Assembly (NCBI GenBank): GCA_042571705.1
Contig: JBHPFV010000001.1
Span: 46,630 to 110,629, forward strand
Direction of reading: 5' to 3'
Length of the DNA stretch: 64,000 nt
Source: Candidatus Omnitrophota bacterium
GTDB taxonomy: Bacteria; Omnitrophota; Gorgyraeia; JAFGHF01
Each line of letters begins with the position of its first letter. Position 1 is the first letter of the stretch. Below, in pieces: positions 33,101-64,000 of the stretch. A program made the translations under genes and the position numbers. Below the pieces are notes generated by a model that saw nothing but the letters and a program-made list of their open reading frames with translations, was not told the DNA's origin and searched no databases.

Positions 33101-36100
33101 CCCTTCAGAAATTGCGGAACTTATGTTTAAACACCCCGCCTGTACTTTACTTTATAGGTATTTTGTTAATCAGCAATCTATGGATAGGGCCAAGGCCACT
33201 GCCATGGCGCGGAAGATTATATATCGAGATACGATCAAAATGGCCCAGCTTTATCAGCTAGCCGAATATCTTTCTGGACTAAGTGATAGAAGCGATCAAA
33301 ACTTAGAACGAGAAACCTACCAGTGGTTCAAACAGCCCGGTTCCGAAGCCAATCGGGAAAATAGGGACAGCGACCGATTTCCGGAAACCCTCTCCGTCTT
33401 TGGGAAGGAAGGGGATGGTTCACCGATTGGCTCTGGCTCAACTTTCCGATTAGATAGGGAGCAGGCCCGACAGTACGAACGGAGAAAGATAGAACGGGCC
33501 GCAACATTTACTAGGGAAATATTAGCAGATGATGAAAATAGAAGAGCAGATGTATGGGAGGCGCATCTCTGTCAAATACATTCGCTTTTGTTGGATTATC
33601 TTCTCAACGTAATTGGAATCGAAACGGATATTGTTGCAATACTTTGGAAACCGCTCAATGAAAATTACGCCCATGTTCATTATTGCGGTAAAACAGCAAC
33701 AGGTGTATACGCCGACGCTTTACCGGAAAGAAACGGTCTTAATTTGGATGTCAAAGATCAGGGTTTAGTTCTTTATCCGGGTGATGATGGATATAGCGAA
33801 TACCTGAAAAGTGAAAAAAGAGCCATGTCACTTTATCTTAGAGATCATTTCCAACGAACACCAAAGGTTGTTTTGTTAGGTAATGGGTATTTCCTAGGGA
33901 AATTCATACAAATAATGACCGCATACAAAGGGCAAATCGTAAAATTTACACTGTCCTGTTTATCTGTAGAAGCGGCGAGTGGAGAAAGTGTTCGTTCTGA
34001 TCGGGCCAATGTCTCAGATAATGCAACCCTATCCGTCTTGGGGCTGGGGGGCTTGGGCCTGATGGGTGGCTGGGATATCGTGGGCTTGGGGATTGGCGTG
34101 GTGCTGTGGAAGCTATTACGAAAATCACCATCAGTTCATAAGCTAATAAAGCCAGCCTGTTTAGTAGGGGTATTAGGCATCGCAGCTATATTACTTATTC
34201 CGGAGCTGATTGCGGCGGCAGGAGAGCTTAAGCCTTTGCTTCCGCTAGGTGGTGTAGGTTTGGCTATGGGGGCAGTGTTGGGGGGAATAAAAGGCACCAA
34301 TGATAAAGGTAGCTGTGTTGCGTGTTATAGCGGAGGAAAAGAAAGTATCCTTGCTATACAACTAGCAGCAAAGCAGGGCCTTATTGTTTCTCATCTCCTA
34401 GAGTGGGGGGTAATCGCCGAGCCTGAAGATCGATCAACCTTAGATGGTAGATGTGCCAGTTTAACCCGAGCACAGGCAGATATCTTAGGGATTCCCCTAA
34501 TACAGAAAAGAGAGCCTAAAGAAATACAAGCACAAGTTTGTCGAACTGTGGTTGAAACACTTTCAGAACAGGGCAATGATATCAGCGGAATAGTTGCCGG
34601 AGATATGCTTCCTAGGGAATTTGATAAGCTGGATACACTTTGCAATGAAACCGGTCTTAAGTTATTTGCGCCATTGAGAGAAAAGACCTCTGAGCAAATC
34701 TGGTCAGAACTTAAAAAGGCCGATATTAAAGCAGTAATTACTAACGGTATTTCTAATTTTATCGGAAGAAATATGATTGGCCGTCAGTTAGACGATTCAA
34801 TTATTGAAGAGTTAAGAAGAAAGAAAGTTGATATTATAGGTAGAAATGGTGAGTATCATACGCTAGTAATTGATTCGCGTTTATTCCCAGAGAAGATTGA
34901 AATAGTAAAAGCAGAAATTGTTAAGGCTAGTATATTTTGGTGGATATGGGATATTCATGAATATAGAAGGGTTCCCAAAAATAGCGACAGACGCCAATCT
35001 CCGGAAACCCTATCCGCCTTTGGATTTGGCGGATTGGGAATGCTGTTGGGCAAAGCGAATTGGATTAATGCTGCTCTGTGGGTTGCGGCGGCTATAGTTA
35101 CTGGCATTATCATTTATGTCGCAAGAAAATCAGAATTGTCTCAACAGGGGCTGGAACTGGAGAAGATAAGAAGTATAACAGAAGATAAAGACTTTTTAGA
35201 GGCTTGTAAGTATTTTAATTCTCAAGTGTTGCCAGCGCCAATTTCACTTGGAGACTATCCCCATACGGACAGCGGCCATTATCGCCTAAGGTGGTTCTTG
35301 ATGAATTATTTATTAATCAATAATGGATACACAGCGTTTTATTTTGAGAAACAGGAACTCCCTTTACTTCGCCATCGGCCTGAGTATCAAAACCCCGCGC
35401 TTTTAGTTGAACTGATAAAGGAACGCAGCGGTCCCAGAATAGACACCTGTAAAACAGATTCTATTTACGCTGGCAAGGATGATTTGGTAGGGGCAGAGGA
35501 AAAATCTGCAGAAAACAAGATCAAGGTTTTGGTAATAAGCGATGAAACTATATCCTGGCTGATAGAGAGGCTAAAGAAGATAGATGATTCTCTATGTGTT
35601 GAGAGTGCATCTGCTGATATGGTAAGTGCCCTGCAAAAGGTGAAGCGGGAAAGGAGCGGATTTGACATAGTAATTATTGGCGGGAGTACGCCAAAGATGA
35701 ATATCCTGCAGTTTGTGAAAGAAGTAAGGGAAAAATCTGCTGATACATTCTTTATTGTTCAGAGCTCTTTAGCTGTAGGAAGATTGGAACAAAGCCTGGT
35801 AGAAATAATCGATATGTTTGTCAGCCGGACTGACTTTACAACAGAGCATATTATGGGCCCTGTGGTTGAGCAGGCCAGGCAGGTGGCCGTACTCACCAGC
35901 AATTGCCTGGTTGAGGCAATTGCCTTAAGAGATAACAGATCTAAGAGGGAATTGGCTAAGAGATTTGCCAAGTATTTTACTTCTGAAAAAATAAAGAATA
36001 AAGAAATATCATTTGAGAAGGCTTTAATGATTATGAACAAGGAAAATATTTCTGATAGTGATCTATATGTTCAGAGGCGAGTAGAGCATCTCTGGCACGT

Positions 36101-39100
36101 AGTCTTTGGGGCCAAGGGAGGCTATCAGGAGTTCTCAAAAGTAACAGAAAGATTACGGAAAGAGCCTGAAGAATTAAAACAGGCCAAGCTGGGCAACGAT
36201 AGGCAGAGCAGCCAATTACCAGGGATAATTAACTTGGCGCTGGCAGAAGATATAGCTCAGGGTGATCCTACCAGCGAACTGGTCTTTTCAGAAACAGCAA
36301 CTGCTAATGCTAAAATCATAACCAGGGAAGCTGGCATAGTCTGTGGTTTGGAGGCAGCAAGATTAGCTTTTCAAGCTGTAGATGACAAGATTAGCTTTCA
36401 GACTAAGCTCAGAGACGGGCAGGAAGTTGAGCAAGGCCAAATTCTTATTGAGTTAGAAGGCAATGCGCGAAATATTTTGATGGCGGAAAGAGCGGCTTTG
36501 AACTTTTTAGGCCGTCTTTCCGGGATTGCCAGTTTGACCAGCAAGCTTGTCAATAGAATTAAACCATCGAAGGTCAAAATTATGCCTTATGAAACGACCT
36601 GTGGGCTGAAGGAGCTCGAAGAAGGTGCTGTTCTTTGCGGAGGTGGGTTTATCCGTCCGGGGAAAGAGGTGCCGGTTGTAACTATGGATAATCTGCGCAA
36701 AATTGTTGCCAGCGGCGTAGCTAAGATTGCAGTGCGAGAGTTGACTCTTTCAACAAAAATACTAGACGTGGCTTTAGATTTGTGCGTATCCGAACCAAAT
36801 GATCGAAGCCGGGTCTGGACGGGTGATAATGAATCAGGCCAAGCCACATTTGCCTTTGCCTTTTTTGGCTTGGGCCTGCCCGCCTTCGGCGAGACTTTGC
36901 CGGTCCTGGGGATGGTTGCGGCGCCGTTGGTGTGGGTGGCGGTTGTGGCTGTGCTGGCTGTGGCGGCAGACTTTGAGCCTTTACTTGGGATGAGCGGTGT
37001 AGGTCTGGCTATGGGGGTAGTGGCAGGATTAGGTGACAGATGGGGAGAATCGAAAGTTTTTCATGCTAAAACTGTAATAAAGCGCCTCTTAAATGCAGAC
37101 CGAAATATAAGAACACCGGCTGCCTTGTTTGAAAGTCTAAGGACTGAGGCCCCCGATGTATTGGCGGCAATACCACCAGTTCGCGAAGATGGAACATTTA
37201 ACTATACGGTTCAAGAAAGGCGAGAAAAATTGCAAAACCTGGTATCTCTGGCTGCCGAGGAATTACGGGTAAGAATTAATTTAATTGTGGCGAGTTACAA
37301 AAGAAATATTGCTGAAGCAGCTTCTGGGGAAGAATTGAAGAATCTTTATAGGAATTTAGGTAAAGTCCTACATCCTGACTTTAATCTTGGTAATGAAAAA
37401 ATGGCCATTGCTGCCTTCATAGAGCTTGCAAGTGCTGTGGAGAGACGCTTAGCAAGCGACTTACCAGAATTTACTAGTGATATTAGAGCTTTAGCGAAGA
37501 AATGGTCAAAATTCATTACTTTTCTTGGTTGTGGTGAAAGCATGCCTTTAATGGAGGGACCAATTGGAGAGCTCTTAAAGAGCGAGGGAAGTGTAGTAGA
37601 AGAAGCAAAAAGGCTTTCTTCTTTAGCTGTGGGTAATATTGCCTATATAAGCTTACCGAAACAGGAAAATTCAAAAAGCCTTTCATTAGTGGTCTTACCA
37701 AATATGATGATTAGGCGAATACTCGTCTTAGGCCAGTTGACTGCCGAAACCCCATTGCCATATATCAGCATAGAGCCTCCTGTAATCGGATCTACGTTAA
37801 CTACTGAGGGCATGCCGACCGATAGCTGGTATATTCCCTACTTCTCCGTGGCAAGTATGCTTAATCCGCCTGTGGAACATATCGCATTGGAGGATCTCAG
37901 GCAACACAGGATAAAGGCTGTAAAAGAGCCTCTTTATACTGTAAGAGGCACTTTTGGCACTCCTTTCGTAGCCAGAATTGGTGAGCTGTTTGAATGTAAT
38001 TACGAAGACGGCGGTTTCACCACTTTAAAAAATAAGAAAACACTTACCAGTGTAACGGTAATAAGCTTGAAAAGAGGAAATTTGTACAGGCGCCTTACGC
38101 TTTTTCCTTACGGTGAGGGCTCAATTGATTCGTATCATTTAATGCTTCATCCTAGTGAAAGAAAAGTCCAAGGTCAAATAATTAATGTAAGTGTGAAGAC
38201 AGTACAAAAAGGTGTAGAGGGGGGATATATCAAGATTAGAAGAAAAGTCTTGCCTTCCAAACAAACCCACATAGTTGTAGAGGGCGGCAAAACCAATCTG
38301 AGAAGTGTACCCGGCTTAGATGACGAAGCCATCAAAACAGACAATAGTGCCCTCTCTGTCTTCGGGTTGGGGGGCTTGGGCCTGTTTGGTGGCTGGTGGG
38401 GTGTTGTTGGTGTGGCGGCTGTGGTTGTGGGTGTGCTAATTATGGATGCTCAACGTGAAAGGATGGTTTCAACCTTCTTCTCAAGGGTGGCAATACGTTT
38501 CTCTAAGGCTTGGAAGTCTTGCTTGCGCAGCATATCTGATAAGGCTTTGATGGCTAGAGAGTTGTCCGCCACCATCTGGGCAAGTTTTTCTATGTCGGTT
38601 TTTACATTCTTTAAATCAGCGCGAATACCAGCTATTTCTCGCTGTATTTCTTTATTGGACACTTTAATTATGGTAATATCTTCAAAATTTCGTCCTACTT
38701 GTTCCCGAGTACCCCTAACTTCTTCTTTGAGTTCTCCTACATCTGCTCGGACGAATTCTAAGCCTTCACCAAAAGTACGAAATTGCGACGACAAATCCTC
38801 TAATATTACACCAAACTCTCGATCTTTACTGAGATCTTTACCTTTCTTGGCCACGCTATTCTCCTTATTTGAATTTGGAAATTATGCAACACAAATCATA
38901 TCACCAAGCCCTGTCTCTGTCAAGGGTAAATTTGGAAGTCAGGATACCCTATCCGTCTTAGGGCTGGGGGGCTTGGGGTTGATGAGTGTTGACTGGGTTA
39001 GTGCTGGTTTGTTTTTTGGGGTAATGTTAGTGTGGTGGCGGAGAACTAATAGTGAGTCTTTACCGGTAGGCTTCGCGGCGATGACGGACACGAAACACGA

Positions 39101-42100
39101 TAACTTCTTTAGACGTATCGCTAATCGTATAAATAACGCGATAACTGCCCTTACGCAGTCGATATTGGTTGGCCGTGCCGGTAAGTTTCTTACAATTTCC
39201 AGGCCGGGGATTTCCAGCAAGAGAACGAATGGCAGTTATAATAGCAGGAATTTGTTTCTTGGGCAGGGAGCGAATCTGTTTTTGCGCAGAGGCAATGAGG
39301 AAGAGCTTATACAACCTTCTCTCCCTGGAGTTGCTCAGCGAATTTATCAAAGGAAATCCGCTTTTCCTTACGGTGAGACTTTATGTATTGGCTGTCGGCC
39401 AAATCCTCCACCAGTTCAAGGAGCTTCCGGTAGTCCTTTATACTCAGTATCACCGCAGAGCACTTTCCGTGTTCGTCTACTACAAACTCTTCGTGCAATT
39501 TTATCATCGTTTACCCCCAATTTATCCTCTGATTCCAACAACTCTACCGATAAATATAACCCATTTTCCCATAGAAGTCAAGCTGTAAGAGGCCAAACCG
39601 CTGTGGTGGGGTGGTTGGGGTTGGTGGGGGTGGTTGTGCTGGCTGTGGCGGCGGACTTTGAGCCTTTGCTGGGGGTAGGCGGTGTAGGCGCAGGTCTGTT
39701 TTTGGCCGCAATGATGATGGGTGGGATATATGACGCAAGCAGAAAAAAAGAGTCTGCGCATAATATTAATGCAAAAAAACAATTGATAACAGCTGACCAG
39801 ATAAAAATGACCGGATATAACCCTACTAATCAGCGAGATAGAGTAATAATTACTTATCAGAATCAACCAAAATTTCCTGTCATAGCAGAAAGCAATGTAT
39901 TGGCGATGTTTGAGTTCAAGAGATTGGCAGAGTTTGTGGATATAGAAAAGATACAGGTTGCAATAAGCACGGGTTTGCCAAGCCTTGGGTTCTGTATAAA
40001 ATCTACTGATCCTACGCTTCCGGGATATAACGAAAAAGCACAAGAAGCACTGCTAGTTAGAATAAATGTTTTTATCGATTACTGTTATCCGAATGACTTT
40101 AAAGCCTGGGAAAATGGTGAAATAATTAATGCTGCTAGGCTGACCGGGTTACACACAAACCCTGCCATAAAAGGTGAGGTTTTTCTCCATAATCTATTTG
40201 AAAATCATTTGAAACCGATGATCAAGAATGCGGGATTTGAATGCATTAATGCCTGGGCATTTGAGATTCCTGGTAAAACGTGGCTTCATCGTCACGGTTT
40301 TGTAGATATGAAAGTTGGTGATGGTTCAACTATATTTACTTTAAATTTACAAGATTACAGTCCTGTTGGTACGCAGTGGCATGGTTGGCGGGGGAAAGCA
40401 GGAGAATCAGAACCGGCCCAAGAATCTAATATCTTGCTACCTGATGAGTTGAGATGGTCTTCATACAGACTGCCTGATTATTTTATAGTAGATAGAATGA
40501 AAGACGATAATGATTTTCGTGAACGAGTATTCAATGAAGGAATTTTGCCTGTAGGGGTAAAAGGAATTATAGATAATCCTGAATTAGCAGATTGGATGAG
40601 GACATTTGACCCGCGAATGGTCGCTAAAATCAAGGCTTTTCTGTATAATTCCTACAAAGATCACAAGCGATTAGAGCTGATTGGAATAAAAGGGACCCAT
40701 CATTGCTCTACTTGCGCTGATGAAATATGGGAAGTAATACCCGGGACTCTATTCCATTGGGCGGCTTGGAATCGAGTTGGTTTAGACCCAGAAAATGGCC
40801 TCGGCAAACGTTTGGCCGATATATATCCTTACATAGAAAACCCGTGGATCAAGGGAATGGGCCAGGTGAAATGCAGAGAATATACTGGTGATATTGTGGA
40901 AGGGTTTTTACAAAAGCTAAAAGCAGAATCTGAACTTATGCCTGTTGTTTTGCAATTATGCGAGACTTCTAATGAAATCGTATTAGACGATTATTGGTAC
41001 CGCGCCAGCATTACAAATGCATTATATGGACTGGGCGACCATCATGAATATGATATTTCTCCTTTCGGATTGTTCTTTATAACAAATCTATCCATCCTGT
41101 TATTTAAAGAAGGCTTAATAACGCAAGAAGATTACAGGAAACTTGAAATAGCGACAACAAGGGTAGAGTTTCCCTATGGCGGTATTGGGCGTTTCTTGCC
41201 GTATAACTTATTTAGAGAGGTATCGGCGTCTAAGGATTTTGATTATAAGCAAGCGGTAAAAAGATTTTTTGAGAGTTGTACTCGCAATGATTATTGTTTA
41301 TCTGACCAATGGTATGCAGATCAGTTGTATGCTGCACTTTCTGCTGCAAAATCTCAAGGTATAAGTGTTGCTGATGATATTTGGCAAGAGTTTTGCAGAA
41401 TGTTTCGTCAAAAAAATAGGGACAGCGAGCAATCTCCGAACTCCCTATCCGCCTTCGGGCTGGGGGGCTTGGAGTTGCCTGTTATCGTGGGCTTGGTGGC
41501 TGTTGGGGCTGTGGCTGTGTTGTGGAAGCTGTTGCGAAAACTGGGAAAAAGTCAAAATCCAAGACCTGGCCCCATCGACGTTAGCTTGCTTCGGCCGATA
41601 GTAATTTTAGCCGGTGTTTTAGCCTATTCTTTTTTCTCTCCGGGAGCAATGGAAGGAATACTTAGTTTTCACTTGTTGATTTGTCTTATAGTGGCGATCA
41701 GCGTAGCACTCGTTTGCTATGTTGGGCACATATTCAACAGGGATAGAAATCTAGAAGGACAAAAATCTCAAGTCAAAAAAGATGGAATCACTCCCGAAGA
41801 GAAAGAGAAAGTTTTTTGGGATATTGTCAAGATACTAGCCGTGTTGTTCTTGATATGGGTTGTTTTCGGACCAGTAAACACTGCCGCAGGCGGGACATTG
41901 GCATTGCCAGCTGCAACCACTACAACTGTGGCACCGGCTGCAGTTCCGTCAACACTGCCGACACTTACGCAAATGCTATTAACTATTTTAGCAATAGCGG
42001 TTGGGGTCTATTGTTTGCTGAGACCCAATCTCAATCGGTTTAAGACTCTCTTAAACAGAAATTTGCTTTGGCCGATAGCATTTTTATTAGTCGGTGCTGG

Positions 42101-45100
42101 TGTTTTAGCAGCATATTTTTTCCTCCCTCCCGAAGCAACAACCCAAGCCATGGCTCAGCTTTTCGGCACAGGAGGCAGCGCAGCAGGAGTTAAGTCCTTA
42201 CTCCCGGCAGGCGGCATGGCTCTGGCCATGGCGGGGGTGACAGGAAGCGCAGGCGCAGGAGAAAGATCTGAACGAGAATTTAAGCAACCTTCAAGGAATC
42301 TTGTTAATAAAGATGGCCCAAAGGCTGGCTTCGGCGCACCGTGGAGAATTGATGTGGCCAATGTGCCTACGCTTGCTTTTACTCAGGTTGCGGCAGCAGA
42401 ACCCGAAGATTCGATGTTTGCATTGAATATCTATCTGCGCTATCTCTCGGTCGCAGCCAAAAAAGAAATTATGAATAGAATTAGGCGTGCACGTAAGTTT
42501 ATTGAGAAGCTAGAGTCAATGTATCCCGATGCATTAACTTTTGTGCTGTTTGGAAGCTATCCTTATGGTTTTATGAATGAGATACCACGCGACATAGATG
42601 TTCACATTACGGAAAGCAAGAACGAAAATATTACGCAGCTAACAAATCTTGCTGACCTTTTTGATAGGTATAGTCGCACGCCGGAAACCGTGAAAGGCGT
42701 AGTTTTTACCGAAAAAGATTTCTTAGGGTCATTATCTCAAAATAACGCAGGTTTGATATTGCCTTACGTTCTAGAGGCATTGACCGGTATTACCGTTAAG
42801 GGGAAATTTTATTACGATGTCAATAATCCACCTTCGCTCAGGTATATTTTCTACCTTTTAGATTTTACTCAAGAAACCATAGATGAATCGATGGAAATAT
42901 TAGATTTGCCTTACTCGAGTGAAAGTCTTCAAGAGTACAGGCATTATAAGGCACACCAAGTGCATAGAGATAAAATTCGCTTTGCTCAAGACACCATAGA
43001 CGCGTTTGAAAGAAGAGAAAAAGGCAGAGCTGCCATGCACATGAGAGCTATAAGACTTGTATGCCAAAGTCAACTTGTTATGAAGTTGATCTGCGATCTA
43101 TATGGAGTAGATAGCACAGAAGTCCTGCCGCCAACATCCAATAACCCTTATATTAACGAACAAGCGATCAAGACATTGAGTACATATATAACAGAAGGTG
43201 CTCCCCATATGTCGTTCATCATGGACGGCGTACATAATACTGACGACTTTACTTTAGTCTATGATGCCTGTCGTCAGCTATGCGAGGCATTAACGAGTTT
43301 GGATGAAAGAGTGGAGAAGTTGCGGCAGCGTACCCAAGACAAAGATCCCGATGCTGCCTCCGGCTCAGACGGTACAGCCCTCTCCATCTTCGGACTTTGT
43401 GGGTTGGGGATGGGTGGTGTGCCTTTACTGGCTGTTGGGGCAGTGGTTGTGCTGTGTTTTAGCCGTATGTTTAGGTCGGGCTTAAACAGGTGGGGTTGGG
43501 GCATTGCAGCTGCATTATTACTTATCCCAGCGCTATTTGGCCAGTCAACAGAGCTGTTTGCGGTCGCAGGAGGTTTTAAGCCTTTGCTTGGCGGGGCAGG
43601 CGGCATGGCTCTGGCTATGGTCGCCATGATGGGTGGGATGACAGACGTTGGCGATGGGTCGCATAAAGATAAAAATAGGTCTGACCCCTTTTCTCCACAA
43701 CCTTCTTCGGAAAAAGCAAAGAAGGTAAAAGAAATTTTTGGTGAAAACGCGATAAAAGACGAGCTCGATTTAAATTATGATTTTCAGCAGCTTGTAGAAG
43801 GACATAGGAGAGAGAGGTTTGAAGAAGGGAACGAAGGTGGGGCGAAAGGGGAAACAAAGTGGTTTCCTTTAAGAATAGCTTTAATGCCGCTTTTTAGATG
43901 TGTAGCCAATTGTCTGTATTGTTTCTTTGGAAATAGCGTACATAAAAAAGACGAGATGTCCATAGAGAATATGGCTCATATATTCGATACCCAAGAATTA
44001 CTTATAAAAAATATTTTCTCACATCTAAGCGGAGGAGAGATTTTCCTGAGGGATGATGTGTTGGAAATGATTGAGAAATTTCCAATCGTTTCATTAGTTA
44101 CTAACGCGGCAACCATGACTTCTTTAGAAAAAGCTAAGGATTCCATTATAGCGTTAAAGAAAGTATATGAAAAAAGAATAGAATCCGGACAGATGGAGAT
44201 TTTAAAGCCAGATAGTTTTGGGCAAGTTGATAGATATCAGAGATCCTGGTTGTGTTATTTATGGATGAGAGAGAAACTAATAGAGTTAACCCGAAATGAG
44301 CCTTTTCATATAGGTATTTCCTTAGATGACATTTGTTTAGCGGAACACTCTATTTCTGTGGGAAAAATAGCAAATTTAATAGTCGCTTGTGTTAATCATT
44401 ATCCTAAATTGGGCCTGGGATTTATAGCAATTGATGGAAAATGGAAAGAAGAAGCATACCCTGCCCTGAAGAAAGAACTTGAGAGGCATGGTTTAGCTTT
44501 AAAATTCAATGAAAAAAATAATAATTTTCTTTTGACAAGGCACGGTGGATTTAGAAAACTAATCAATTTAAAAGAAAATTCTATTGAAAAAGTGGGCGGC
44601 GCTTTTGCTAATTTGTCCGGTGAAAATTTTGGCAAAGCTATTTTACCCAAACAAAGGTCTTATTTTGGATTCTATAAAGATTATTATGGACTAGCTATAA
44701 TTGATTATAGTGGCAACATGAGTATTTCAGACGGTTTCTTGGCTGAGCATGCACCTCTTATATTTGGAAATGTACTTGAGGAAGGCTGGAGTAAAATACT
44801 TAAGAGGGTAGACAAAGATCCACTATTTAGAGCGCTAGTTACCTCAACGCAAAAAATTATTTCAATAGCAAAGGAATATGATCCTGATATTGTAAAAAAT
44901 ATACAAGAGGGCAAGCCCGGTGGGACTATTGCACTATTTTACTGGCTTCTCTCCAACCCCGAGCGAAAACTCTACGTAACCTATCGGCTTCTGCAAGACT
45001 ATTACGAAGAGGGCGTGTTAAAAGGCAAAAATCCGTTCAAGGACCTGGAGCCACATGAGATAAAGGCTTTAGTTGAGAAAGAGGTTGGAGAATTAAGAGA

Positions 45101-48100
45101 TGAATTCAGAGAAAGACCAGGTAAAGCCACAGATGATGGAGGCAGTCACGAATCTCCTGAAACTCTATCCGCCTTTTGGTTTGGTGGGTTGGGACTGATT
45201 GGAGCCGAGCACTGGGTAGTGCTGGCTGTGGGTCTAGGTATTATGTTTGGGGGGACACTTCTCCGATTGGCTCGAGAAACGGTCTCCGATTGGCTGGAGA
45301 ACCGGTCTCCGTTTGGGCTGAGACCTGGTCTTATCAATGTGCGATTAGTAGGCTGTTTGGTATTGGGGATATTAGGCATCGCGGCTCTATGGCTATGGGG
45401 CGGCCCAGGTACAGGGCTGGCTGTGGCGGCGGACTTTGAGCCTTTGCTTGGTGTAGGCGGTGGCGTAAGTTTAGCTATGGCGGGGGTGGGGGTGATTTAT
45501 GCAAGCTTAAATGATAAAGAGGGGCAGATCATAAGTGCTGTTGAGAAATTTTATAATGAACATGGAGAGAATGTTTATAGAAACACTGCAGGAGGAATAG
45601 GGGGGAGATATAAACCATTGCCATCAAAAAAGGCGATGGAAGATTTATGGTTACTGTGTAAACAGTTAAGAATACGAAAAGGAGACAAATTTTATGATTT
45701 TGGATTTGGGGATGGTAGAATTGCTGTTATGATGAGAGCGCTTGGTCTCCAAGCGTATGGCGACGAAATAGATGTTAATTTAGCCAAGAAAGCAAAGGTT
45801 TTATTAGGGAAAAATCTTAAGAAGTATTCATTTTTAAGTAGCCTTGTAAACGAAGACAATGTACATCTACAACACGGTGATTCCTTCAATCGAGATTTAT
45901 CTGAATTTGATATTGTCTTTTTCTATTATACGTTTCCTATTCCAGATTGGACCGGAGGAAATCAAGATTTGGCTAGAGAAGTGTTTAAACAAAGAGTATG
46001 GGCAAAGCTGATTGGCAATATAGACGGAAAAGGCCTTAAGTCTGGGGCACAATTTATTACTTTCTGTCCTCCCGAGAGCAAATATTGGTTAGATGACTTT
46101 GATGAATTTAATGTTATGCATTGTGGTAATTTCGGGATATATGAGCTGAAACCGCAGGTTGGGGATGGAGACTTTGGTGGCTGGATGACTGATCCAATGT
46201 CTGGATTTGTTGGTATGCATCAGGCGGGTTGGCGTAAGAAAGCAGAGGAATCGCAACCGCCCCCAGAAGATATTTATTCTATAGCAAAAATAACCGTACC
46301 GAAAACTGCACATAGGCAAAAAGGAATACACCACAGGCCTTCGCTAGCTCTTGTTGATACTTGTGGAAAAATATATAAGCTATTTTCTGAAAATATTATA
46401 ATTAAATTTTCAAGGGGTGAGGAAAGTAGTGGCGATGAGGCTACTTATCGTCATGGAGGCATTGCAGAGTTTGTTTTTAAAATAGGATCCTCAGGTGGAT
46501 ATACAGGGCCATATATAATTACTATCGAAGGGCCTTTTAAGCAAGACCTGCTTGAAGAGGCAGCCAAGATTCTTGCTACCGTTCTAGGGGACGAAAGATT
46601 TAAATATGGTTTTCATTCAGACCTGCCACTGAGAGAGGAAATAGATGAAAAGATTAGACAACTCAGAACATCCATTGCCAAAAATAGGGGTGACGACCAA
46701 TCTTCAGAAGCCCTATCCGCTTTGGGGCTGGGGGGCTTGGGGTTGATGGGTGGCTGGAATGTTGCTATTTTGGCTGTGGTGACTGTAGTGGTTATGGCTA
46801 TTTTTAGCTTACGGCAGAAACGAAGGGGTGATTATCGTGACAATGAGGTTACTTTAGCCTCAAGAGTAGATATGCGTTTTTCCAGGGCTTGGAGTTCTTG
46901 GCGGTCAACTTTAGTTTTGGCGAGATTATCAATGCTTTGGGTAAGTGTCTCAATTTTAGCGGCCATATTCTGGATTGCCGCTTCTAGAAGGGTAATCTTT
47001 TCGGTATTCTTGCCAACTTGCTCATACGTAGCATCAAGCTTAGAAACCATTTCTTCTTGTCGTTCGCCAAATGCCTTGAATTCACTGCGAAATTGGTCAA
47101 TTAGCGTACCTACTTCCGTGGGGCTAAATTTAGCTTTGGCAGGTTTGCTTGTTCTGATGGGTTTTTTCATGGTGAGGTATATAATAAGCCTGCCGAGCGC
47201 AAAAGTCAAGCGAAAAATAATGCCGCTAACCGTTAAAGGTGAGCTAAATGTACAATTACTTGAAAGGTTGGTTGATCAGGCTGGCAGAAACGCCGGATTT
47301 GTGCTTGATGTAGGGATTATAGCCAGGATTGTTGGCGGAATGAGAGTTCTAAGGTCAGGAAAACGCAAAGATATAGATATTGCTCTTATTTTGCAACATC
47401 CTTTTCAAGGTGGTGAATGCAGCAAGTTTATTGAACAGTTTAAACAAATAGTAGAGAAACATCAAGGTGTAGAGTTAAAGAAAAGAGAAGTGAGTGCAAA
47501 GGAAGGGAGGCATTTTCCGTTTCATTATCTTAAAATTACTTCTTCTTTAGCAGGACAAGTAAAAGAGATAGAAGTTAGGGATATATTTCTTATACTTGAC
47601 TCAAGATTGATTTTATCTGCCCTTGCTCCACCTTCACAGGTTCTATCAGACCAGACGCTCGAATCCCTATCCCATTTATCTTTCAAGAATCTTATTACTT
47701 TAGAATATTATCTTGGTGATTTAGAAATATACACTAAGATGTTGGAAGAATTCAAGAGTAAAGTTCAAGATGGCGGCGATGTGATCGTTGACTTCGATAA
47801 GCATCCTTCTTATGCTGAAAGGGCAAGGACGCATATAGCGGAAGCCAAAAGATTAATGGAATGCAGTGAAAGGGAGTTGGCTCAGGATGAAAAATTTCGT
47901 CAGGTTCATACCCGTTATACCTGTTTTATCTTTAATGTAGAAAAAAGGGTCAGACGTCAATCTCCGAGACCGACGAACTGGCGGGGGCATCAGATGTTAC
48001 CGTCGGGAGTGGTGATGACACAAGAGATGCTGCAGAACAACGGATATGCGCAGGGGTGGCAGCAAGGCAGAGCTGCTCGAGCAGCCAATGCATGGTTTGG

Positions 48101-51100
48101 CTTAGATGGTGCCGATTCTTTTACAGATCCGCTCATACCCAACATAGCCGGTGCGTTTCGGCAGGGGGTGAATCGGGGGAATGAGTCTGAGTCCATTGGA
48201 GAAAGTCAAAATTCAAGACCTGACCCCATTTCTGGTAGAGGGGACGGCAGGAGAGGAAGAAGTGAACCCGTCCCCAATACTACTGCAGACAATAAGGGGA
48301 AATCTTTTCTTGCTTTTTGGAGTGGCGGTAAAGATAGCTACTTTGCCGTTAAGTGGGCATTAGAACAGGAGTTGAGGGTTGCTTATTTATTTAATGTTTG
48401 CTATCGCAAGCCGCCGAATGGCAAATTGATGTCTTTATGCACTCTTCCTGTCGACTTAATATATTTACAGTCCAGAGCTTTGGGTATTCCTTTGATTACA
48501 AGCATTATAAATGTAAATGATATGGCATATCCAGGAGTGGGCTATGTGCAACTTTCTACCAATACTTTAAAGAGGTTTGTTAAGAGTTCAAAGAGTAATG
48601 TCGATGGCATAATTGCCGGAGACATGTTGCAGGACAACAAAGATGAATTAGAAAGAATTTGTGCCAGCTTGGGCATTAAACTTATAATGCCACTTGAACA
48701 TCAAACTCAATCGGAAATCTTATTAGAAGCCGTAAAGTCCGAAAATAGGATAGTTATTTCTTCAGTTCAAAAATCATCTATGGAATTGTCTGAGTTCTTT
48801 AGGGGTGGATTCGACAGGCGTTATATTGATTATTTGAGACGGCATCATAGTGATGTCTTAGGTAGTAACGGCGAATATCATACTATAGTGCTCAAGGGGA
48901 GTAAGTATGTCAATGGCTGGATAGAAATAATAAATGAAACATTTGAGATCCACAGAGATTGGTGGGTACGCAGCTTTAATGAATATCGTTTTGTTCCCAA
49001 AGCGACGAGAGCTGAGGACAAAACACTCAATTCCGCCCAAAAAAATGATTTACCCGATTCTGAAAGTAGTGCCCTATCCGTCTTGGGGCTGGTTGGAGTC
49101 GGATACTGGGTAGTGGCGGCTGTGGCGGCGTTAATTTTTGTCATCATCGCCAAAAGGGACACTTTCCCGTTTGGATCTGGCCCAGCTTCCCGATTGAATC
49201 CAGACCTGGTCCTACCGATAGGGGTGGGGGTTGGGGTGGCGTTGGTCTTCATGGCGCAAGAGGGGGCGCTTATTGGCGGGATGTTCCTGACCGCAATGAT
49301 GGGTGGGATATATGACATTGGTGGGAAAAAAGTGTCTGTTCCTAATTTACTAATGTTAAAACAACGTTTGGATACGCTAGCCACAATTAAAGACAAAAGG
49401 AAAGCCGTAGAATTCGCTCGTAGTTTTGGGTTGGATTTAAGGCCCAGTATTTATGGAATGTTGCATCCGCTTCATATCGGTCATTCAAGGGCAGTCCATC
49501 GGCAGATTTCTGACAATGACGACACAGAAGCTAAAATAGCTGTCGATGGAGCCGGAAGTGTGGACCTGACAACAATTGTACATTGTACCGGAGCGCGTGA
49601 AATTTATAAGATAGATCATCAGAGTACCTACACTATTGAACATTGGCTTGGAAGCTGGGATTCTTTTGGGACTCCAAGAGACCCATTACTGAATCGTTAC
49701 ACTGATCCGTATGCGGGATATAAATTTATCAATGGGTACGGCGAATCTGGAGAATATGGGACCTTTTATAATCTAGCACAATTAGTTGCTGAACTAAAAG
49801 CATTGGGTGTTGAAAGAAGAGATATTGATACAGTAACAGAAACAGTGCAAAATGATGCATGGAAATGGTACGACGATAAAAAGGGCGAGAGGACATTTTT
49901 AAGAGAATTAAAATTTTTGTGGAGTCCAACAAGCAATGAATACGACAAGCAGCCTCACACTGTACATTTTATAAAAGGAGACATTACCGATCCGAGCACC
50001 TATTTAAGCAAGATCGAACATTTAAAAAGTAAAGTTGATTTTTACTACCAAAGAGCAGGATTTTCCGCAGCTCGATATTATGGGAACTATATACCCAAAA
50101 TATTAGAGTTGCTTAAACCCGGAGCTTTTATAATTACAGATGATTATTATTTAAGAGATGACGGAGAAGTCTTGGTAGTAGAACCGGTGGATTTGTCCCT
50201 TGTTTTGCAGGAAAAGAAACTAGATTGTTATAAAGTACCTTTATCGCCTAAAGTTGAGGCCTGGCGGAAAGCTATCTTGAAATTTTTAAAACAGACTATT
50301 GTCAATAGGTTATTGAAAGGCGAAGTTGGATACGGGTGCGACTTAAAAATTTACCAAAGGACTGCAAATATTGGACCAACCCAATCAACCTCTGCCATCT
50401 TTGTTCCCGGCCTGTTCGCCTTTGGCGAAACTATGCCGGTCCTGGGGATGGGTGTGGGGGGCTGGATGGTGCTGGCTGTGGGTCTAGGTATTTTGCTCTG
50501 GAGGGACACCTTCCCGTTTAGATCTGGCCCAGCTTCCCGATTGAATCCGGACCTGGTCCTACCGATAGGGGTGGGGGTTGGGGTGGTGGCGTTGTTCTTG
50601 GTGGCGCCAGAGGGAGGTTTTCTGGGCGGGATGTTCCTGGCCGCAATGATGGGTGGGATTAATGACGTTAGTGGAAAAAAAGAGTCTGTGCCTAATATTT
50701 TGAGTGAATTGCAGGGCATGATTCGACAGGCAGATAGAGAGGATGAATGGGAGTTAATTGTTTCCTGTACCGGGTTAAGAAAAAATATTGTTGCATTTGT
50801 ACTTAAAAGAGAAATTCCACTTCAAGCTGTGCCTTCGGTTGCCCAAGCTATAGCGCGTTGCGGCTTTTCAAAAACAGAAGAAGCCCTGAAATTGGTTAAT
50901 CCAGAAGCCGCGGTTTCAGCTGCTATTGCTATTCAATATGTTGGAAGGCCCAAAGTAAAGCAGCTTATGCGGCGTAATATTCCACAGGAAAAACTCGGTG
51001 CAGTTGCTGATCTGATAAAATATTATGGCCAAAATGCAGAAAGATTATTTAATCCAGCTTACAGAAAAGAAAGTTTTGTTACTGCACATGCATATGAGAC

Positions 51101-52988: not shown

Positions 52989-53003
52989 ACGGACAAGTAA
53001 AAA

Positions 53004-53345
53004 CTATTCTCTGATGCGGAAGCCGTCTTTTTCTAAGATAATCAATTTCTTATCTAAATCTTTCTGGGAGAATTTATTGAACAAGTCTTCTAAGCCGACT
53101 AAGATAGTGGAGATAATCGGTGGGCGGGCTTTGATTCTAATAATGCCGTGGAAATTTTTAGGTGGAAAGGTAAGCAAATTAGCAAAATCTTTGTCTTGGG
53201 TAAGGATAATGCGATTTTGCCGTTTGGCCAGAATAGCGATATCTGTATCTTTAGTTCCTGAAGTAGGCGTGGTAACATCGTGTCCCTTATCCCGCAGGAT
53301 GTCTACTAGTTCATCAGGGATGTTCTCGTCAACCAGTAGCTTCAA
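53004..53345 (-). CDS. DUF5615-family PIN-like putative toxin
   Basis: MKLLVDENIPDELVDILRDKGHDVT..TDIAILAKRQNRIILTQDKDFANL matches the DUF5615 N-terminal pattern. It is convergent with the giant ORF stop, separated by a 15-nt gap. Confidence 0.7.
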   Translation of the reverse strand: MKLLVDENIPDELVDILRDKGHDVTTPTSGTKDTDIAILAKRQNRIILTQDKDFANLLTFPPKNFHGIIRIKARPPIISTILVGLEDLFNKFSQKDLDKKLIILEKDGFRIRE

Positions 53346-53346
53346 C

Positions 53347-53601
53347 TTAAGCCACCTTAGTAAAGGGAACCGACTCTCCGGTCCTCATAAGCTCAGCCGC
53401 ATAATGGAGCGCCGCCTGAATGTGTTTTTTGGTAAGCTTTCGATAATACCTTCTAATTATTTCGTCTTCATCTACTCCGGACTCAAGGAGCTCAAGAACA
53501 AGATAGACCATGATGCGACTTCCTTTAAAACAAGGCTGGCCATGGCAGATTTTAGGGTCAACTGTGATATAATCTTCGATTTTGGTGATTCTCTTCAACA
53601 T
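53347..53601 (-). CDS. DUF433-family putative antitoxin
   Basis: ITVDPKICHGQPCFKGSRIMVYLVLELLESGVDEDEIIRRY..LTKKHIQAALHYA is a typical DUF433 pattern. It lies 1 nt upstream of the DUF5615 gene, with AAGGAG 7 nt before the ATG. Confidence 0.7.
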   Translation of the reverse strand: MLKRITKIEDYITVDPKICHGQPCFKGSRIMVYLVLELLESGVDEDEIIRRYYRKLTKKHIQAALHYAAELMRTGESVPFTKVA

Positions 53602-53654
53602 ATTTTCTCCTTAATTAATTTTTTAGTTCGTTTACGGAATAGCTTCTTTATGAA

Positions 53655-53683
53655 TTTATACCATAATTTTGAGCGTAAGTCAA
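53655..53683 (-). promoter_or_regulatory. Sigma70-type promoter for the DUF433/DUF5615 operon
   Basis: The minus strand reads TTGACT (53683-53678), a 17-nt spacer ending in TGG, then TATAAA (53660-53655). Confidence 0.6.
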
Positions 53684-53770
53684 TCAGGTTTTGTGAAGAG
53701 ATAAGGACAAGTCGGAGCAAGGATGGAATTAGGTTCAACCACCAGCCCGTGGCGCCTGGTTCCTTTTCCC

Positions 53771-53797
53771 GCCTGTTGGGGACCGCCCCCAACAGGC
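53771..53797. other. GC-rich 11-bp stem-loop in the TA/PilZ intergenic region
   Basis: gcctgttgggg (53771-81), loop accgc, ccccaacaggc (53787-97), perfectly complementary. No U-tract on either strand. Confidence 0.6.
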
Positions 53798-53847
53798 TTC
53801 CGGCTTGTCCGCTAACCATGACCTTACATTCAAAGGGGTTGGTTTAA

Positions 53848-54192
53848 ATGGAGGAGAGGAGAGGTTCTCCCAGGTGGAGGATAGAGCGGCCGATTCTGAT
53901 TAAGGCAGAAGAGGAACAGGCCGATTTATCCCAGGCGGTTTTAGAGGACATCAATCTCAACGGAGCCAAAGTCAATTTAGAGGTGCCCCTGGCTGTGCGC
54001 ACCAGACTGAAATTGGTGATTGATGTTGCCGAGGATGCGGCTCCAATCTTTAATGAAGGGGAGGTGATTTGGCAGAAAACTTTGGGCAATCAATTTTCCA
54101 CGGGCATTCGTTTCACCCTGTTTAGGCCCGCCGACAAAGAGCGATTCCTAAGCTGCTTTGACCAGCAGATTAGGCAGAGTTGGTGGCGCTGA
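53848..54192 (+). CDS. PilZ domain protein (1 of 3)
   Basis: ERRGSPRWR (RxxxR) and DINLNGAKV (D/NxSxxG-like), 114 aa. Confidence 0.7.
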   Translation: MEERRGSPRWRIERPILIKAEEEQADLSQAVLEDINLNGAKVNLEVPLAVRTRLKLVIDVAEDAAPIFNEGEVIWQKTLGNQFSTGIRFTLFRPADKERFLSCFDQQIRQSWWR

Positions 54193-54210
54193 AATTAGGG
54201 TTGACGGGAG

Positions 54211-54564
54211 GTGGAGAAGATGTTACAAAGTAATAGTGTAACGGAAGAACGCCGGGCTGATGAGCGTTTGCTGGTCCGCTGCCCGATAAAATTTCGGACA
54301 GAACAAGATGAGGGCTTAAGAGAGGCCTCAGCCAAGGACTTCAGTGACAGAGGAATCGGGTTTTTTACCCATTCCAGGATAGCGCCCAATACGCAACTTG
54401 AGCTGTGGGTTAATCTGCTGCCAGAGGCTAGGCACTTGCACGTCACCGGACGAGTAGTCTGGACCAAGCGCGGCCTGCCACGACTTTGGCGCGCGGGTGT
54501 ACGCCTTGAAGAAAGGGCGTTTACGAAAATAATGAGAATGTTATTAAACAGGAAAGAGAGGTGA
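54211..54564 (+). CDS. PilZ domain protein (2 of 3)
   Basis: EERRADERL and DFSDRGIGFF, 117 aa. Confidence 0.75.
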   Translation: MEKMLQSNSVTEERRADERLLVRCPIKFRTEQDEGLREASAKDFSDRGIGFFTHSRIAPNTQLELWVNLLPEARHLHVTGRVVWTKRGLPRLWRAGVRLEERAFTKIMRMLLNRKER

Positions 54565-54567
54565 AAA

Positions 54568-54897
54568 ATGAAGAAGAAAGATCGCAGAATATTTGAGCGG
54601 TTTGATGTTGACTTTTCGGCCAAGCTTAAGCAGGCTGAGATCAGGAAACAAAGCCCGGCCAATTGTTTCGATGTCAGCGCCACCGGTATTGGGGTACTTA
54701 CTGAGGAGAAACTGATTCCGACTCCGAAACTGGAAGTATCGGTAGATATCCCGGATGGATATACGCCCTTGCGCAGTGGAGTGCGGCTGATTTGGACCAG
54801 GAAGGTCCGGGAGGATAAATGGCGTTCGGGATTGGAGTTTAAAGGTATCAGTTTAATGGCCTTAAGGAGGGTGCTGGATAAGCAAATAAAGAAGTGA
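54568..54897 (+). CDS. PilZ domain protein (3 of 3)
   Basis: KDRRIFERF and DVSATGIGVL, 109 aa. Confidence 0.75.
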   Translation: MKKKDRRIFERFDVDFSAKLKQAEIRKQSPANCFDVSATGIGVLTEEKLIPTPKLEVSVDIPDGYTPLRSGVRLIWTRKVREDKWRSGLEFKGISLMALRRVLDKQIKK

Positions 54898-54903
54898 TCG
54901 CTC

Positions 54904-54933
54904 TTGACAAGAAATAGGGTGTTATGATACCAT
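54904..54933 (+). promoter_or_regulatory. Candidate promoter for the sugar-metabolism operon
   Basis: TTGACA (54904-09), an 18-nt spacer, then TACCAT (54928-33). It lies in the 92-nt gap before the TTG start at 54990. Confidence 0.35.
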
Positions 54934-54989
54934 AAGTCTTTACATTTGAGAGTTTTTTAAGTTCTTAACAAAGATCTAAGGAAGAGACA

Positions 54990-56015
54990 TTGGGATTCAA
55001 AATAGGTCTAGTTGGTTGCGGCAGCATCTTTCCGATGCATGCCCAATCGTTAATTAATACACCTGGCGTAAAAATAGTGGCTGTCTGCGATCTGCGCAAG
55101 TCGCGAGCTCAAAAAGTGGCCCGGAAGTATAATTGCCGTGGTTATTTAGATTATACAAAGATGTTGGAGCAAGAACAGCTTGACGCGGTGCATATTCTGA
55201 CTCCCCATTATTTACACCCGCCAATGGCTATCCAGGCCCTAAATAAAAAGATCAATGTGCTCACTGAGAAGCCGATCGCGATTAATCCCCGCGACGGGGA
55301 AAAAATGATTAAAATCGCCAAGAAAAATAAGGTCAAGCTGGGGGTAATTTCCCAGAACAGATATAATCCCGGCTCACAATTGGTGAAGAAATATCTAGAG
55401 AATAAAAAACTAGGCAAGGTTAAGGCGGTCAAGCTGATTGTTACTTATTATAAGCCTGACTATTATTATAGTAAGAGTGACTGGAAGGGCCGGCTGGATA
55501 AAGAAGGCGGCGGGGTGTTGATTGACCAGGCCAGCCACTTTATCGACATCTTAAGGTGGCTGATTAATGACCGGGTCGAATATGTCGAGGCCCATACCGC
55601 CCGCAGGATGCATAAGAATATTGAAGTCGAGGATTTGGCTGAAGGGTTGATTAAGTTTAAGCGGGGCAGCTACATTTGTTTTTATTTGATAAATTTCTAC
55701 AGTTTTGACGCTTTTCCGGAAATTGAGATCGATTGCCAGAACGGCCGGGTGAAAATCATTAAGGATTCAGCGCGGATCGATTTATATAACGGCCAGAAAC
55801 TAAAGGCCGCGCCAAAACCAGGCGAATATATTGATTATGGGGACAACCACAAGGATTATTGGGGGTTTTGCCACTGGATCCAGATTAAGCAATTTTACCG
55901 GGCGCTGAAAAAAGGCGAGCAGCCGGAGATAGATGGTGGAGAAGGACTGAAGACCCAAAGAATTATCTGGAATATCTATAAATCAGCACGAGAAAACAGG
56001 AGAATCAGGTTGTGA
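54990..56015 (+). CDS. Gfo/Idh/MocA-family NAD(P)-dependent oxidoreductase
   Basis: N-terminal Rossmann IGLVGCGSIF and EKPIA, with typical family length. TTG start with AAGGAAGAG upstream. Confidence 0.8.
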   Translation: MGFKIGLVGCGSIFPMHAQSLINTPGVKIVAVCDLRKSRAQKVARKYNCRGYLDYTKMLEQEQLDAVHILTPHYLHPPMAIQALNKKINVLTEKPIAINPRDGEKMIKIAKKNKVKLGVISQNRYNPGSQLVKKYLENKKLGKVKAVKLIVTYYKPDYYYSKSDWKGRLDKEGGGVLIDQASHFIDILRWLINDRVEYVEAHTARRMHKNIEVEDLAEGLIKFKRGSYICFYLINFYSFDAFPEIEIDCQNGRVKIIKDSARIDLYNGQKLKAAPKPGEYIDYGDNHKDYWGFCHWIQIKQFYRALKKGEQPEIDGGEGLKTQRIIWNIYKSARENRRIRL

Positions 56016-63279: not shown

Positions 63280-63319
63280 GAGCTTTTTGTTGAGGTTTTG
63301 GCTACGGTTGTAGCTATAA

Positions 63320-63366
63320 CTGGGAACAGTTCCCAGATTGGGTGAATAATCTGGAGGAACAGTTCC
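63320..63366. promoter_or_regulatory. Pair of GGAACAGTTCC palindromes (candidate operator) upstream of the GH94 gene
   Basis: ctgggaacagttcccag (63320-36, a 17-nt palindrome) and ggaacagttcc (63356-66), with centres 33 bp apart, in the 109-nt gap before GTG 63389. Confidence 0.45.
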
Positions 63367-63388
63367 GCAGGCAGAGGTGGTAGATGAA

Positions 63389-64000
63389 GTGAAGTACGGA
63401 TATTTTGATGAACAGAATAAAGAATATGTGATCACCCGGCCGGATACTCCTTCACCGTGGATTAACTATTTAGGCTTGGATGAATATTGCGCGATGATCT
63501 CTAATACCGCCGGGGGCTATAGCTTCCATAAGGACCCCCGCGATAAACGGATCCTGCGCTATCGTTACAACAATCTGCCGGCGGACCGCCCGGGAAGATA
63601 TCTCTATCTGCGCGATAATAAAGATAAGGATTTCTGGTCTTGTTCCTGGCAGCCGGTGGGTAAGCCGCTTTCTAAGTTTCAATACCAATGCCGTCATGGC
63701 TTAGGTTACACTAAGATTAGCGCTGAGTATAAAGCTGTCAAAAGCGAAGTGACCTATTTTGTGCCGGAGAAGGAACACCTGGAGATTTGGATCTTAAGCT
63801 TGCAAAATTTAGGCAAGAAAACAAAGGACTTATCGCTGTTTTCATATATCGAATTCTGTCTTTGGCAGGCGGTAGCCGACTCGCATGACTTTCAATATAC
63901 CTTAAATATCGCTAATGCCCGCTGCGAACAGGGGATCATCTATCATTTAACTAATTATTACCCCAAGGCAGGTTTGGATTCTTTGGCTTATTTTGGCGCC
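63389..64000 (+). CDS. GH94 cellobiose/cellodextrin/chitobiose phosphorylase-like, 5' partial (runs off the window)
   Basis: (M)KYGYFDEQNKEYVITRPDTPSPWINYLG..YCAMISNTAGGYSF..RYRYNNLPADRPGRYLYLRD matches the GH94 N-terminus. GTG start with GAGGTG 9 nt upstream. Not in the ORF track because no stop falls within the window. Confidence 0.75.
   Translation, partial: MKYGYFDEQNKEYVITRPDTPSPWINYLGLDEYCAMISNTAGGYSFHKDPRDKRILRYRYNNLPADRPGRYLYLRDNKDKDFWSCSWQPVGKPLSKFQYQCRHGLGYTKISAEYKAVKSEVTYFVPEKEHLEIWILSLQNLGKKTKDLSLFSYIEFCLWQAVADSHDFQYTLNIANARCEQGIIYHLTNYYPKAGLDSLAYFGA

Follow-up and report, generated by a model that had tools for sequence, protein, structure and literature searches.

The DNA analysed in this work, called the window below, comprises 64,000 nucleotides (nt) of contig JBHPFV010000001.1 from a Candidatus Omnitrophota bacterium, and its plus strand carries a giant open reading frame (ORF) of the multi-enzyme type that runs stop-free from 84 to 52988 (17,634 codons, 52.9 kilobases (kb)). 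Small minus-strand genes lie nested antisense within this frame, namely hicA, two genes for coiled-coil proteins (cc1 and cc2) and an antitoxin-toxin pair of the relB and parE/relE families, and a second such pair, DUF433 with DUF5615, stands just past the giant ORF stop. Here we describe four minus-strand promoters, P1 to P4, that would serve these small genes, and consider what the position of three of them inside the giant frame may mean.

Read along the minus strand, P1 (38923-38895; TTGACA-17-TATGAT, with the extended -10 element TGa) stands before cc1, P2 (39581-39553; TTGACT-17-TATATT) before the relB/parE-type operon, P3 (47209-47181; TTGACT-17-TATTAT) before cc2, and P4 (53683-53655; TTGACT-17-TATAAA, with TGg upstream as an extended -10) before the DUF433/DUF5615 pair. 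A first-pass annotation had listed these four TTGAC(A/T)-17-TATnn(T/A) sites, and its minus-strand coordinates and 17-nt spacers proved exact for all of them; its assignment of the sites to the named genes is likewise credible, since each is of sigma-70 type and lies 10-53 nt before a minus-strand gene start, and P1, P2 and P3 do, as it held, point against the stop-free 17,634-codon ORF from within. As in sigma-70 promoters, the -35 hexamers agree with TTGACA at all six positions (P1) or at five (TTGACT in P2-P4), and P1-P3 have a -10 of the form TAnnnT at a spacing of 17 nt, inside the 16-18 nt usual for this class; the -10 of P4, TATAAA, ends in A where T is expected (position 6), though a TGn lies upstream of it. 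From the end of the -10 to the start codon there are 40 nt for P1 (GTG), 45 nt for P2 (ATG), 10 nt for P3 (ATG) and 53 nt for P4 (ATG). Ribosome-binding sites (AAGGAG or GGGGG) precede three of the four starts, with AAGGAG for cc1 and for the DUF433/DUF5615 pair; none precedes cc2, and judged from the position of P3 the cc2 mRNA would be leaderless or nearly so.

The genes behind these promoters are of two kinds. The first comprises cc1 (38450-38854, minus strand, 134 residues) and cc2 (46832-47170, minus strand, 112 residues), paralogues with approximately 37-42% identity, depending on the alignment, which have in common the N-terminal motif S-Q/E-F-R/K-x-F-G-E and the C-terminal ALEKR. Searches of Pfam, NCBIfam and PHROGs for a function of this family gave only generic coiled-coil matches below cut-offs. 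Among 5.8 billion proteins cc1 had only three matches, and neither cc2 nor hicA had any in the protein databases searched; cc1 is identical to the NCBI hypothetical protein ACFL2I_08115 of a Candidatus Omnitrophota metagenome-assembled genome (MAG), whose 2.4-kb contig, L001, comes from the same population and corresponds to 36997-39443 of the window at 99.4% identity. Codon usage points to the minus frame at 38401-39000 and 46801-47250; nearly everywhere else it points to the giant frame.

The second kind comprises the two antitoxin-toxin pairs. Behind P2, a RelB-like antitoxin of 66 residues (39307-39507, minus strand; Pfam E = 4e-11) is followed by a toxin of the ParE/RelE superfamily (39060-39314, minus strand; Pfam ParE_toxin E = 1.4e-11), for which the ORF list and the NCBI Prokaryotic Genome Annotation Pipeline (PGAP) give the longer form 39060-39350; its start is probably the TTG at 39314, which gives an overlap of 8 nt with the relB stop. 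The two genes thus belong to cognate families and are adjacent, co-oriented and overlapping, which is the gene order of a type II operon. An inverted repeat, ATTTATC-N22-GATAAAT (39520-39555, minus strand), spans the -10 element and the 5′ untranslated region (UTR) of P2, and we infer from this position a candidate antitoxin operator; type II toxin-antitoxin promoters are normally autorepressed. Behind P4, an antitoxin-like DUF433 protein (53347-53601, minus strand; Pfam E = 2e-20) is followed by a toxin-like DUF5615 protein of PIN-like type (53004-53345, minus strand; Pfam E = 9e-21), whose stop lies 15 nt from that of the giant ORF, so that the two genes converge.

On the minus strand of the 64-kb window, the pattern TTGAC[AT]-N17-TAT..[TA] had four matches, exactly at P1-P4, and on the plus strand it had one (47788), and in 300 dinucleotide-preserving shuffles it matched 0.30 +/- 0.56 times per strand on average, with none of the 300 reaching four; this chance figure is optimistic, in that the strict pattern was derived from P1-P4 themselves. 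Support independent of that derivation comes from the genes, because each of the four sites is directly upstream of a minus-strand gene that is conserved or supported by homology. That the sites share a promoter, as the first-pass annotation had put it, carries no special meaning, as the motif is the general TTGACA-17-TATAAT consensus and is present before conventional and free-standing genes as well. In the window, a conventional plus-strand site (54904-54933; TTGACA-18-TACCAT with TG) lies 57 nt before a GFO/IDH/MocA gene, and in another Omnitrophica genome (L004, 5641-5613) a perfect TTGACA-17-TATAAT precedes a conventional gene of 482 residues. Therefore, since ordinary genes and free-standing homologues of the coiled-coil family carry the same consensus, the motif of P1-P4 marks no dedicated regulon.

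A generic promoter scan of 36000-55900 gave 39 sites against 37 +/- 7 expected, that is, no overall excess, and this caveat applies to any count of promoter-like sites in this region. A loose position weight matrix (PWM), trained on foreign promoters only, ranked P1 third, P2 fourth and P4 ninth and left P3 outside the top 15; as a stand-alone promoter detector it was rejected for insufficient specificity. Three promoter-like sites inside the giant ORF have no recognisable gene downstream: TTGACT-17-TAGATT (41748-41776, minus strand), which is followed by no ORF of at least 50 residues, TTGATA-17-TAAAAT (24894-24922, minus strand) and TTGACT-17-TATGCT (47788-47816, plus strand). Chance could account for these sites, as could lost cassettes that left them behind, or they may act as internal promoters.

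Comparison with other genomes bears on P1 and P3. With the coiled-coil alignment as query, a one-genome-per-species collection and Joint Genome Institute (JGI) metagenomes together yielded 46 loci, and in 12 of them (L002, L003, L004, which is on the same contig as L027, L006, L008, L020, L021, L029, L030, L033 with two copies, L034 and L041) a total of 13 homologues lie nested antisense in stop-free frames of 1,083 to more than 4,894 codons. The nested loci from the genome collection are labelled Omnitrophota, unclassified or 'Planctomycetia', and the metagenome contigs have no label; two loci (L024 and L025) were left out of the nested count, since on their GC-rich contigs of 1.1-1.2 kb an antisense frame can be open from end to end by chance. 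All 13 nested homologues have TTGAC(A/G)-N17-TAnnn(T/A) within 220 nt upstream, against a background of 0.017 per 220 nt, and the free-standing homologues L022, L026, L028 and L042 carry the same motif. In a 15-sequence alignment of the nested coiled-coil promoters, the invariant TTGAC, T-12, A-11 and T-7 reach 1.65-2.0 bits and the TG at -15/-14 reaches 1.3-1.65 bits (TGn precedes the -10 in 13 of the 15), whereas the rest of the spacer stays at approximately 0.25 bit (0.39 over all 17 columns) and the flanks at 0.45-0.47 bit, and the upstream conservation has no triplet periodicity. By its positions, this profile is to be read as the footprint of sigma-70 contacts, not as coding constraint. 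The distances from -10 to start in the nested homologues fall into classes of 6-10, 30 and 39-45 nt, of which P3 (10 nt) fits the first and P1 (40 nt) the third. The assignment of P1 and P3 as promoters is well supported, and that of P2 and P4 is plausible.

The foreign loci resemble the window in further respects. The coiled-coil cassette often occurs in two to three copies per giant gene, unrelated enzyme modules are present in both foreign giant frames that were scanned, and other nested genes stand behind the same motif, namely an antisense hicB-hicA pair in L034 and DUF433 in L041. The nested genes seen in the window and in the foreign loci are all antisense, with no sense-oriented one among them. 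A recurring junction-like motif, SRAEVR, flanks the cassette within approximately 10-70 residues in eight of the 11 loci examined for it.

Several side observations concern the same loci. In L003, SRAEVR occurs 23 times in 4,894 residues, often in pairs approximately 22 residues apart. Conservation extends to the 5′ UTR of the nested coiled-coil gene (CCnCCnGCnnAGAAAGGAA...ATG) in L003, L006, L029, L030 and L033, where the giant strand reads H-x-x-(I/V)-P-F-(F/Y)-A-G-G across it. Antisense in the giant frames of L006 (1005-1220) and L020 (7185-7379), ORFs for membrane proteins of 71 and 64 residues lie behind TTGAC-17-TA sites, one of them with a weak DUF6722 match below the Pfam cut-off, and these small ORFs may be a second family of nested genes. 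In the Bacillota MAGs, each of the loci L009, L010 and L011 holds two to three members of the coiled-coil family, which are free-standing small genes that lack the strict motif and have no giant ORF in their neighbourhood; several of these copies have Gly/Asp-rich internal repeats.

The giant frame itself remains open across every nested gene of the window. In a recoding test, in which the nested protein was held fixed and its synonymous codons were redrawn from local codon usage, the probability that no stop would appear in the giant frame was 0.005 for hicA, 0.064 for cc1, 0.020 for the parE/relE-type toxin gene, 0.011 for relB and 0.023 for cc2, jointly approximately 1.6e-9, and the 13 foreign nested coiled-coil copies, all of them open, gave probabilities of 0.005-0.17 each. 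For comparison, the other two plus frames contain 4-12 stops across cc1, the toxin gene and cc2, and 0 and 2 across relB. Between the cc1 and relBE cassettes, moreover, a copy of the module junction (38935-39035) is in the giant frame and conserved at the protein level. Because openness across five nested genes is very improbable under synonymous recoding and this junction copy is conserved in frame, the continuity of the giant ORF across these antisense-shadow segments is under selection. The peptide that the giant frame would yield across the cassettes is a Ser/Arg/Leu-rich antisense 'shadow' with no homologues; the nested frames are supported as coding under purifying selection by Pfam matches and by the family alignment, whereas in the giant frame selection shows itself solely as freedom from stops.

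A comparable shadow lies beside the terminal pair. Plus frame 1 has no stop between 52981 and 53847, a stretch that takes in DUF5615, DUF433 and P4 and forms a 288-residue ORF without a Pfam match, and recoding over the DUF433/DUF5615 pair gave probabilities of openness of 0.07 and 0.016 for the two genes. Its ATG at 52981 lies 8 nt before the end of the giant ORF (frame 0) at 52988, so that a 1-nt insertion or deletion would fuse both frames, and three PilZ genes (53848, 54211 and 54568) share its frame, with single stops between. It is possible that the terminal pair was nested in the past, or that it is so in variant genomes.

The nested cassettes occupy a particular kind of place in the giant gene. 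Its Pfam modules at or above cut-offs are PIG-L, Pterin_bind, B12-binding with Radical_SAM, GH130, Bac_transf, two Diphthami_syn_2 and QRPTase_N, with Glucosamine_iso, Methyltransf_23 and DnaJ below cut-offs, and it encodes dozens of hydrophobic segments; in the 83 nt of upstream sequence within the window, no promoter of the giant gene itself could be identified. The modules are set apart by junctions in which a motif, for example ALSxFGLGGLGL, leads into a transmembrane helix and this into a basic cluster; often a second helix, with AVAADFEPLLGVGGVG and AAMMGGIYD, comes next. As DNA, the junctions belong to a repeat family of which 8-9 copies lie between 30 and 47 kb. At the protein level, the motif (E/D)xLSxFGLGGLGL recurs at module junctions across 30000-51000 (e.g. 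34015-34290, 38338-38456, 41431-41543 and 46699-46820). We take this layout of motif, helix and basic cluster to be akin to C-terminal sorting or cleavage signals, and by that analogy it suggests that cleavage may divide the giant protein into its modules.

It is the loop behind the first junction helix that houses the cassettes. Along the plus strand, a junction copy at 38338-38456 (ALSVFGLGGLGL and a transmembrane helix) directly precedes the cc1 cassette with P1; the copy at 38935-39035 (TLSVLGLGGLGL, a transmembrane helix and WWRR) separates this from the parE-relB cassette with P2, which is followed by the second junction half at 39591-39731 (a transmembrane helix, AVAADFEPLLGVGGVG and AAMMMGGIYD). 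At the other site, a copy at 46699-46820 (ALSALGLGGLGL, a transmembrane helix and RQKRRG) directly precedes the cc2 cassette with P3, and the next module follows. The first-pass annotation had each embedded promoter abut the next junction, which is true of P1, with the repeat at 38935 only 12 nt away, and of P2, with the repeat at 39602 approximately 20 nt away, but P3 adjoins the start of the next module instead of a junction repeat.

The remaining nested gene is an orphan. The hicA toxin gene (8682-8903, minus strand; HicA_toxin E = 6e-21) looks intact; a junction transmembrane helix (8553-8663) lies on one side of it and the Pterin_bind module on the other. The remark in the first-pass annotation that hicA has no comparable promoter is borne out, there being no usable -35/-10 upstream of it. 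A search for its hicB partner gave no Pfam match in the downstream ORF (8375-8674), in eleven other minus-strand ORFs within the giant ORF, or in two minus-strand ORFs near the 3′ end of the window (63106-63697).

As to where the antisense transcripts would end, no intrinsic terminator follows the nested genes, and the sole minus-strand hairpin with a T-run lies approximately 500 nt beyond cc1. The minus-strand RNA downstream of the nested genes (38300-38455, 38925-39065 and 46680-46837) is 35-38% C and 11-17% G, because it is antisense to the Gly-rich junction. C-rich, G-poor untranslated RNA is the kind of substrate on which Rho acts, and the antisense RNAs may, from this rut-like composition, be kept short through Rho-dependent termination. 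No Rfam family reached its gathering score anywhere in the window. An invertible switch was considered and rejected, as no inverted repeats flank the cassettes and the nested frames have stops on both sides, so that inversion would break the giant frame.

Taking these observations together, we consider it likely that P1-P4 are housekeeping promoters of the sigma-70 (RpoD) type, private to small minus-strand units, and that the nested genes colonised the junction linkers of the giant gene under a frame-preserving filter. In the mechanism that we propose, the junction loop after the transmembrane helix would be the only 'intergenic-like' space in the giant gene. Any stop in the giant frame would break the coupling of translation to transcription, with polar effects over tens of kb downstream, so that frame-preserving insertions alone would survive, and antisense frames, being far easier to keep stop-free than off-frame sense frames, would leave the nested genes all antisense. 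Because they lie on the strand opposite to the giant transcript and could not use it, the nested genes would require promoters of their own, for which the ordinary consensus would do. Convergent transcription with the giant gene would then follow from the layout, and from this geometry transcriptional interference or antisense control of the giant gene is plausible.

A number of points weigh against this proposal. The 13 foreign promoters share a common ancestor, and what they document is conservation, not 13 independent events; moreover, the comparative data cover the coiled-coil promoters P1 and P3, not P2 or P4. The gene-less sites at 41776 and 24922 outrank P1 in the loose PWM, so that a match to the motif does not by itself identify a promoter. 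In all 13 foreign nested copies the coiled-coil codons stand, antisense, in exact register with those of the giant frame, and in cc1 and cc2 they are shifted by one base, a difference in phase that the 'filter' tolerates but does not predict. In L001 (position 2176), a 14-nt deletion relative to 37254-37267 of the window would frameshift the giant ORF, and it could be a real variant or an assembly error; a partial gene call by PGAP on L001 ends at the deletion point. The persistent multi-copy association of the coiled-coil gene with giant ORFs hints at a functional link, and both the activity of P1-P4 and translation through the cassettes are inferred from the DNA itself.

The foremost alternative is that the nested promoters mainly regulate the giant gene, by polymerase collision or occlusion or by pairing of antisense RNA, in a dedicated antisense control that would couple the two expressions reciprocally. 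Promoters near the consensus, with optimal 17-nt spacers and aimed against the giant ORF, would fit such a role, as would the conservation of the coiled-coil cassette with its promoter antisense in at least 13 giant frames, often in two to three copies per gene, the uniformly antisense orientation of the nested genes, the lack of intrinsic terminators bounding the antisense units and the gene-less promoter-like site at 41776. However, the motif is generic and serves conventional and free-standing genes too, and the nested ORFs are conserved proteins that need promoters simply to be expressed. Additionally, the usual autorepression of toxin-antitoxin promoters, for which P2 has a candidate operator, speaks against it, hicA is nested without any promoter, and the ease of keeping antisense frames open explains the orientation equally well. 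We therefore regard dedicated antisense control as rather unlikely.

It is very improbable that the giant frame is untranslated through the cassettes, with the plus strand holding several genes or a decaying pseudogene and the minus-strand units being ordinary intergenic genes. The homology-free Ser/Arg/Leu-rich shadow would be expected in that case, and PGAP called cc1 and parE, not the giant frame, on L001 with its frame-breaking deletion; but 52.9 kb without a stop, the joint recoding probability over five nested genes, the like result for the 13 foreign copies and the protein-level conservation of the in-frame junction between two cassettes all argue against it. That the motifs are chance matches, or by-products of junction DNA or coding constraint without promoter function, is scarcely credible, for although promoter-like sites are in no overall excess, the loose PWM yields equally good orphan sites and P1 is 12 nt from a junction repeat, all four strict minus-strand matches precede real genes, no strict minus-strand site lies beside the other junction copies (repeat families, 30-53 kb), the conservation falls on sigma-70 contact positions including the TG at -15/-14 without triplet periodicity, and homologues outside any giant ORF carry the same motif.

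Housekeeping promoters of frame-preserving insertions being the reading that we prefer, a bolder extension of it may be put forward as a doubtful, though possible, conjecture. The multi-enzyme giant genes of Omnitrophota would be 'operons written as one reading frame', in which selection preserves uninterrupted translation and not a useful peptide everywhere, and in which the junction linkers serve as insertion sites for complete antisense genes, among them toxin-antitoxin modules and the multi-copy coiled-coil family with its strong extended -10 promoter, with the host frame made to remain open across them; in its strongest version, the coiled-coil cassette would be a functional partner, and its convergent promoter would gate or segment the expression of the giant gene.

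At least 12 loci elsewhere, in genomes and metagenomes, repeat this arrangement, which bears on whether bacterial giant genes are read as one unit, since stop avoidance in segments without a useful peptide argues that translation continuity matters. It also has a practical side, in that gene callers suppress nested genes, so that the small-gene content of genomes rich in giant genes is under-annotated. The four 60-bp promoters and three cassettes are short, testable elements for convergent transcription acting on a 53-kb gene.

Among known systems, the promoters resemble those of sigma-70 (RpoD), including the extended -10 class (TGnTATAAT), in the -35 hexamer, the 17-nt spacer, the TAnnnT element and the placement 6-53 nt before a start codon. 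The promoter itself is the same, and what is unusual is its location inside, and antisense to, an ORF kept stop-free. Type II toxin-antitoxin operons (relBE/parDE, hicAB, and DUF433 with PIN-like DUF5615) likewise have the antitoxin first, the toxin second and a promoter directly upstream; here, however, both the relB/parE-type pair and hicA lie wholly within a coding frame, antisense to it, and hicA has neither partner nor promoter. Interference between convergent promoters has been shown experimentally for pR and pL of coliphage 186, as have the excludons of Listeria. The likeness to both would be that the promoters stand face to face and their transcripts overlap, which in the present case is a matter of geometry alone.

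Embedded antisense overlapping genes have been described in E. coli O157:H7 (PMC9927249, PMC5960689) and, as olg1 and olg2, in Pseudomonas aeruginosa (PMC8850804), and these resemble the present genes in that a longer ORF holds, on its opposite strand, a complete protein-coding gene together with the promoter of that gene. Those embedded ORFs are evolutionarily young and without families, and the host protein is functional across the overlap, whereas here the embedded genes belong to old families (Pfam 1e-11 to 1e-21) and the host frame looks like a read-through spacer. The giant genes of Omnitrophota include a 'multi-enzyme metabolic cluster' class with many transmembrane helices (bioRxiv 10.64898/2026.06.07.730766; 10.1101/2023.11.21.568195), to which the present gene is alike in its Omnitrophota origin, its length of 17,634 codons (at least 10,000), its unrelated Pfam enzyme domains, counted as nine distinct families at or above cut-offs and three weaker ones, and its many transmembrane segments; a term search of the same two reports found no antisense or nested genes or promoters. 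Set beside all these systems, nested frame-preserving antisense cassettes in giant genes appear to be an undescribed variant of antisense gene overlap, driven by promoters of a known kind.

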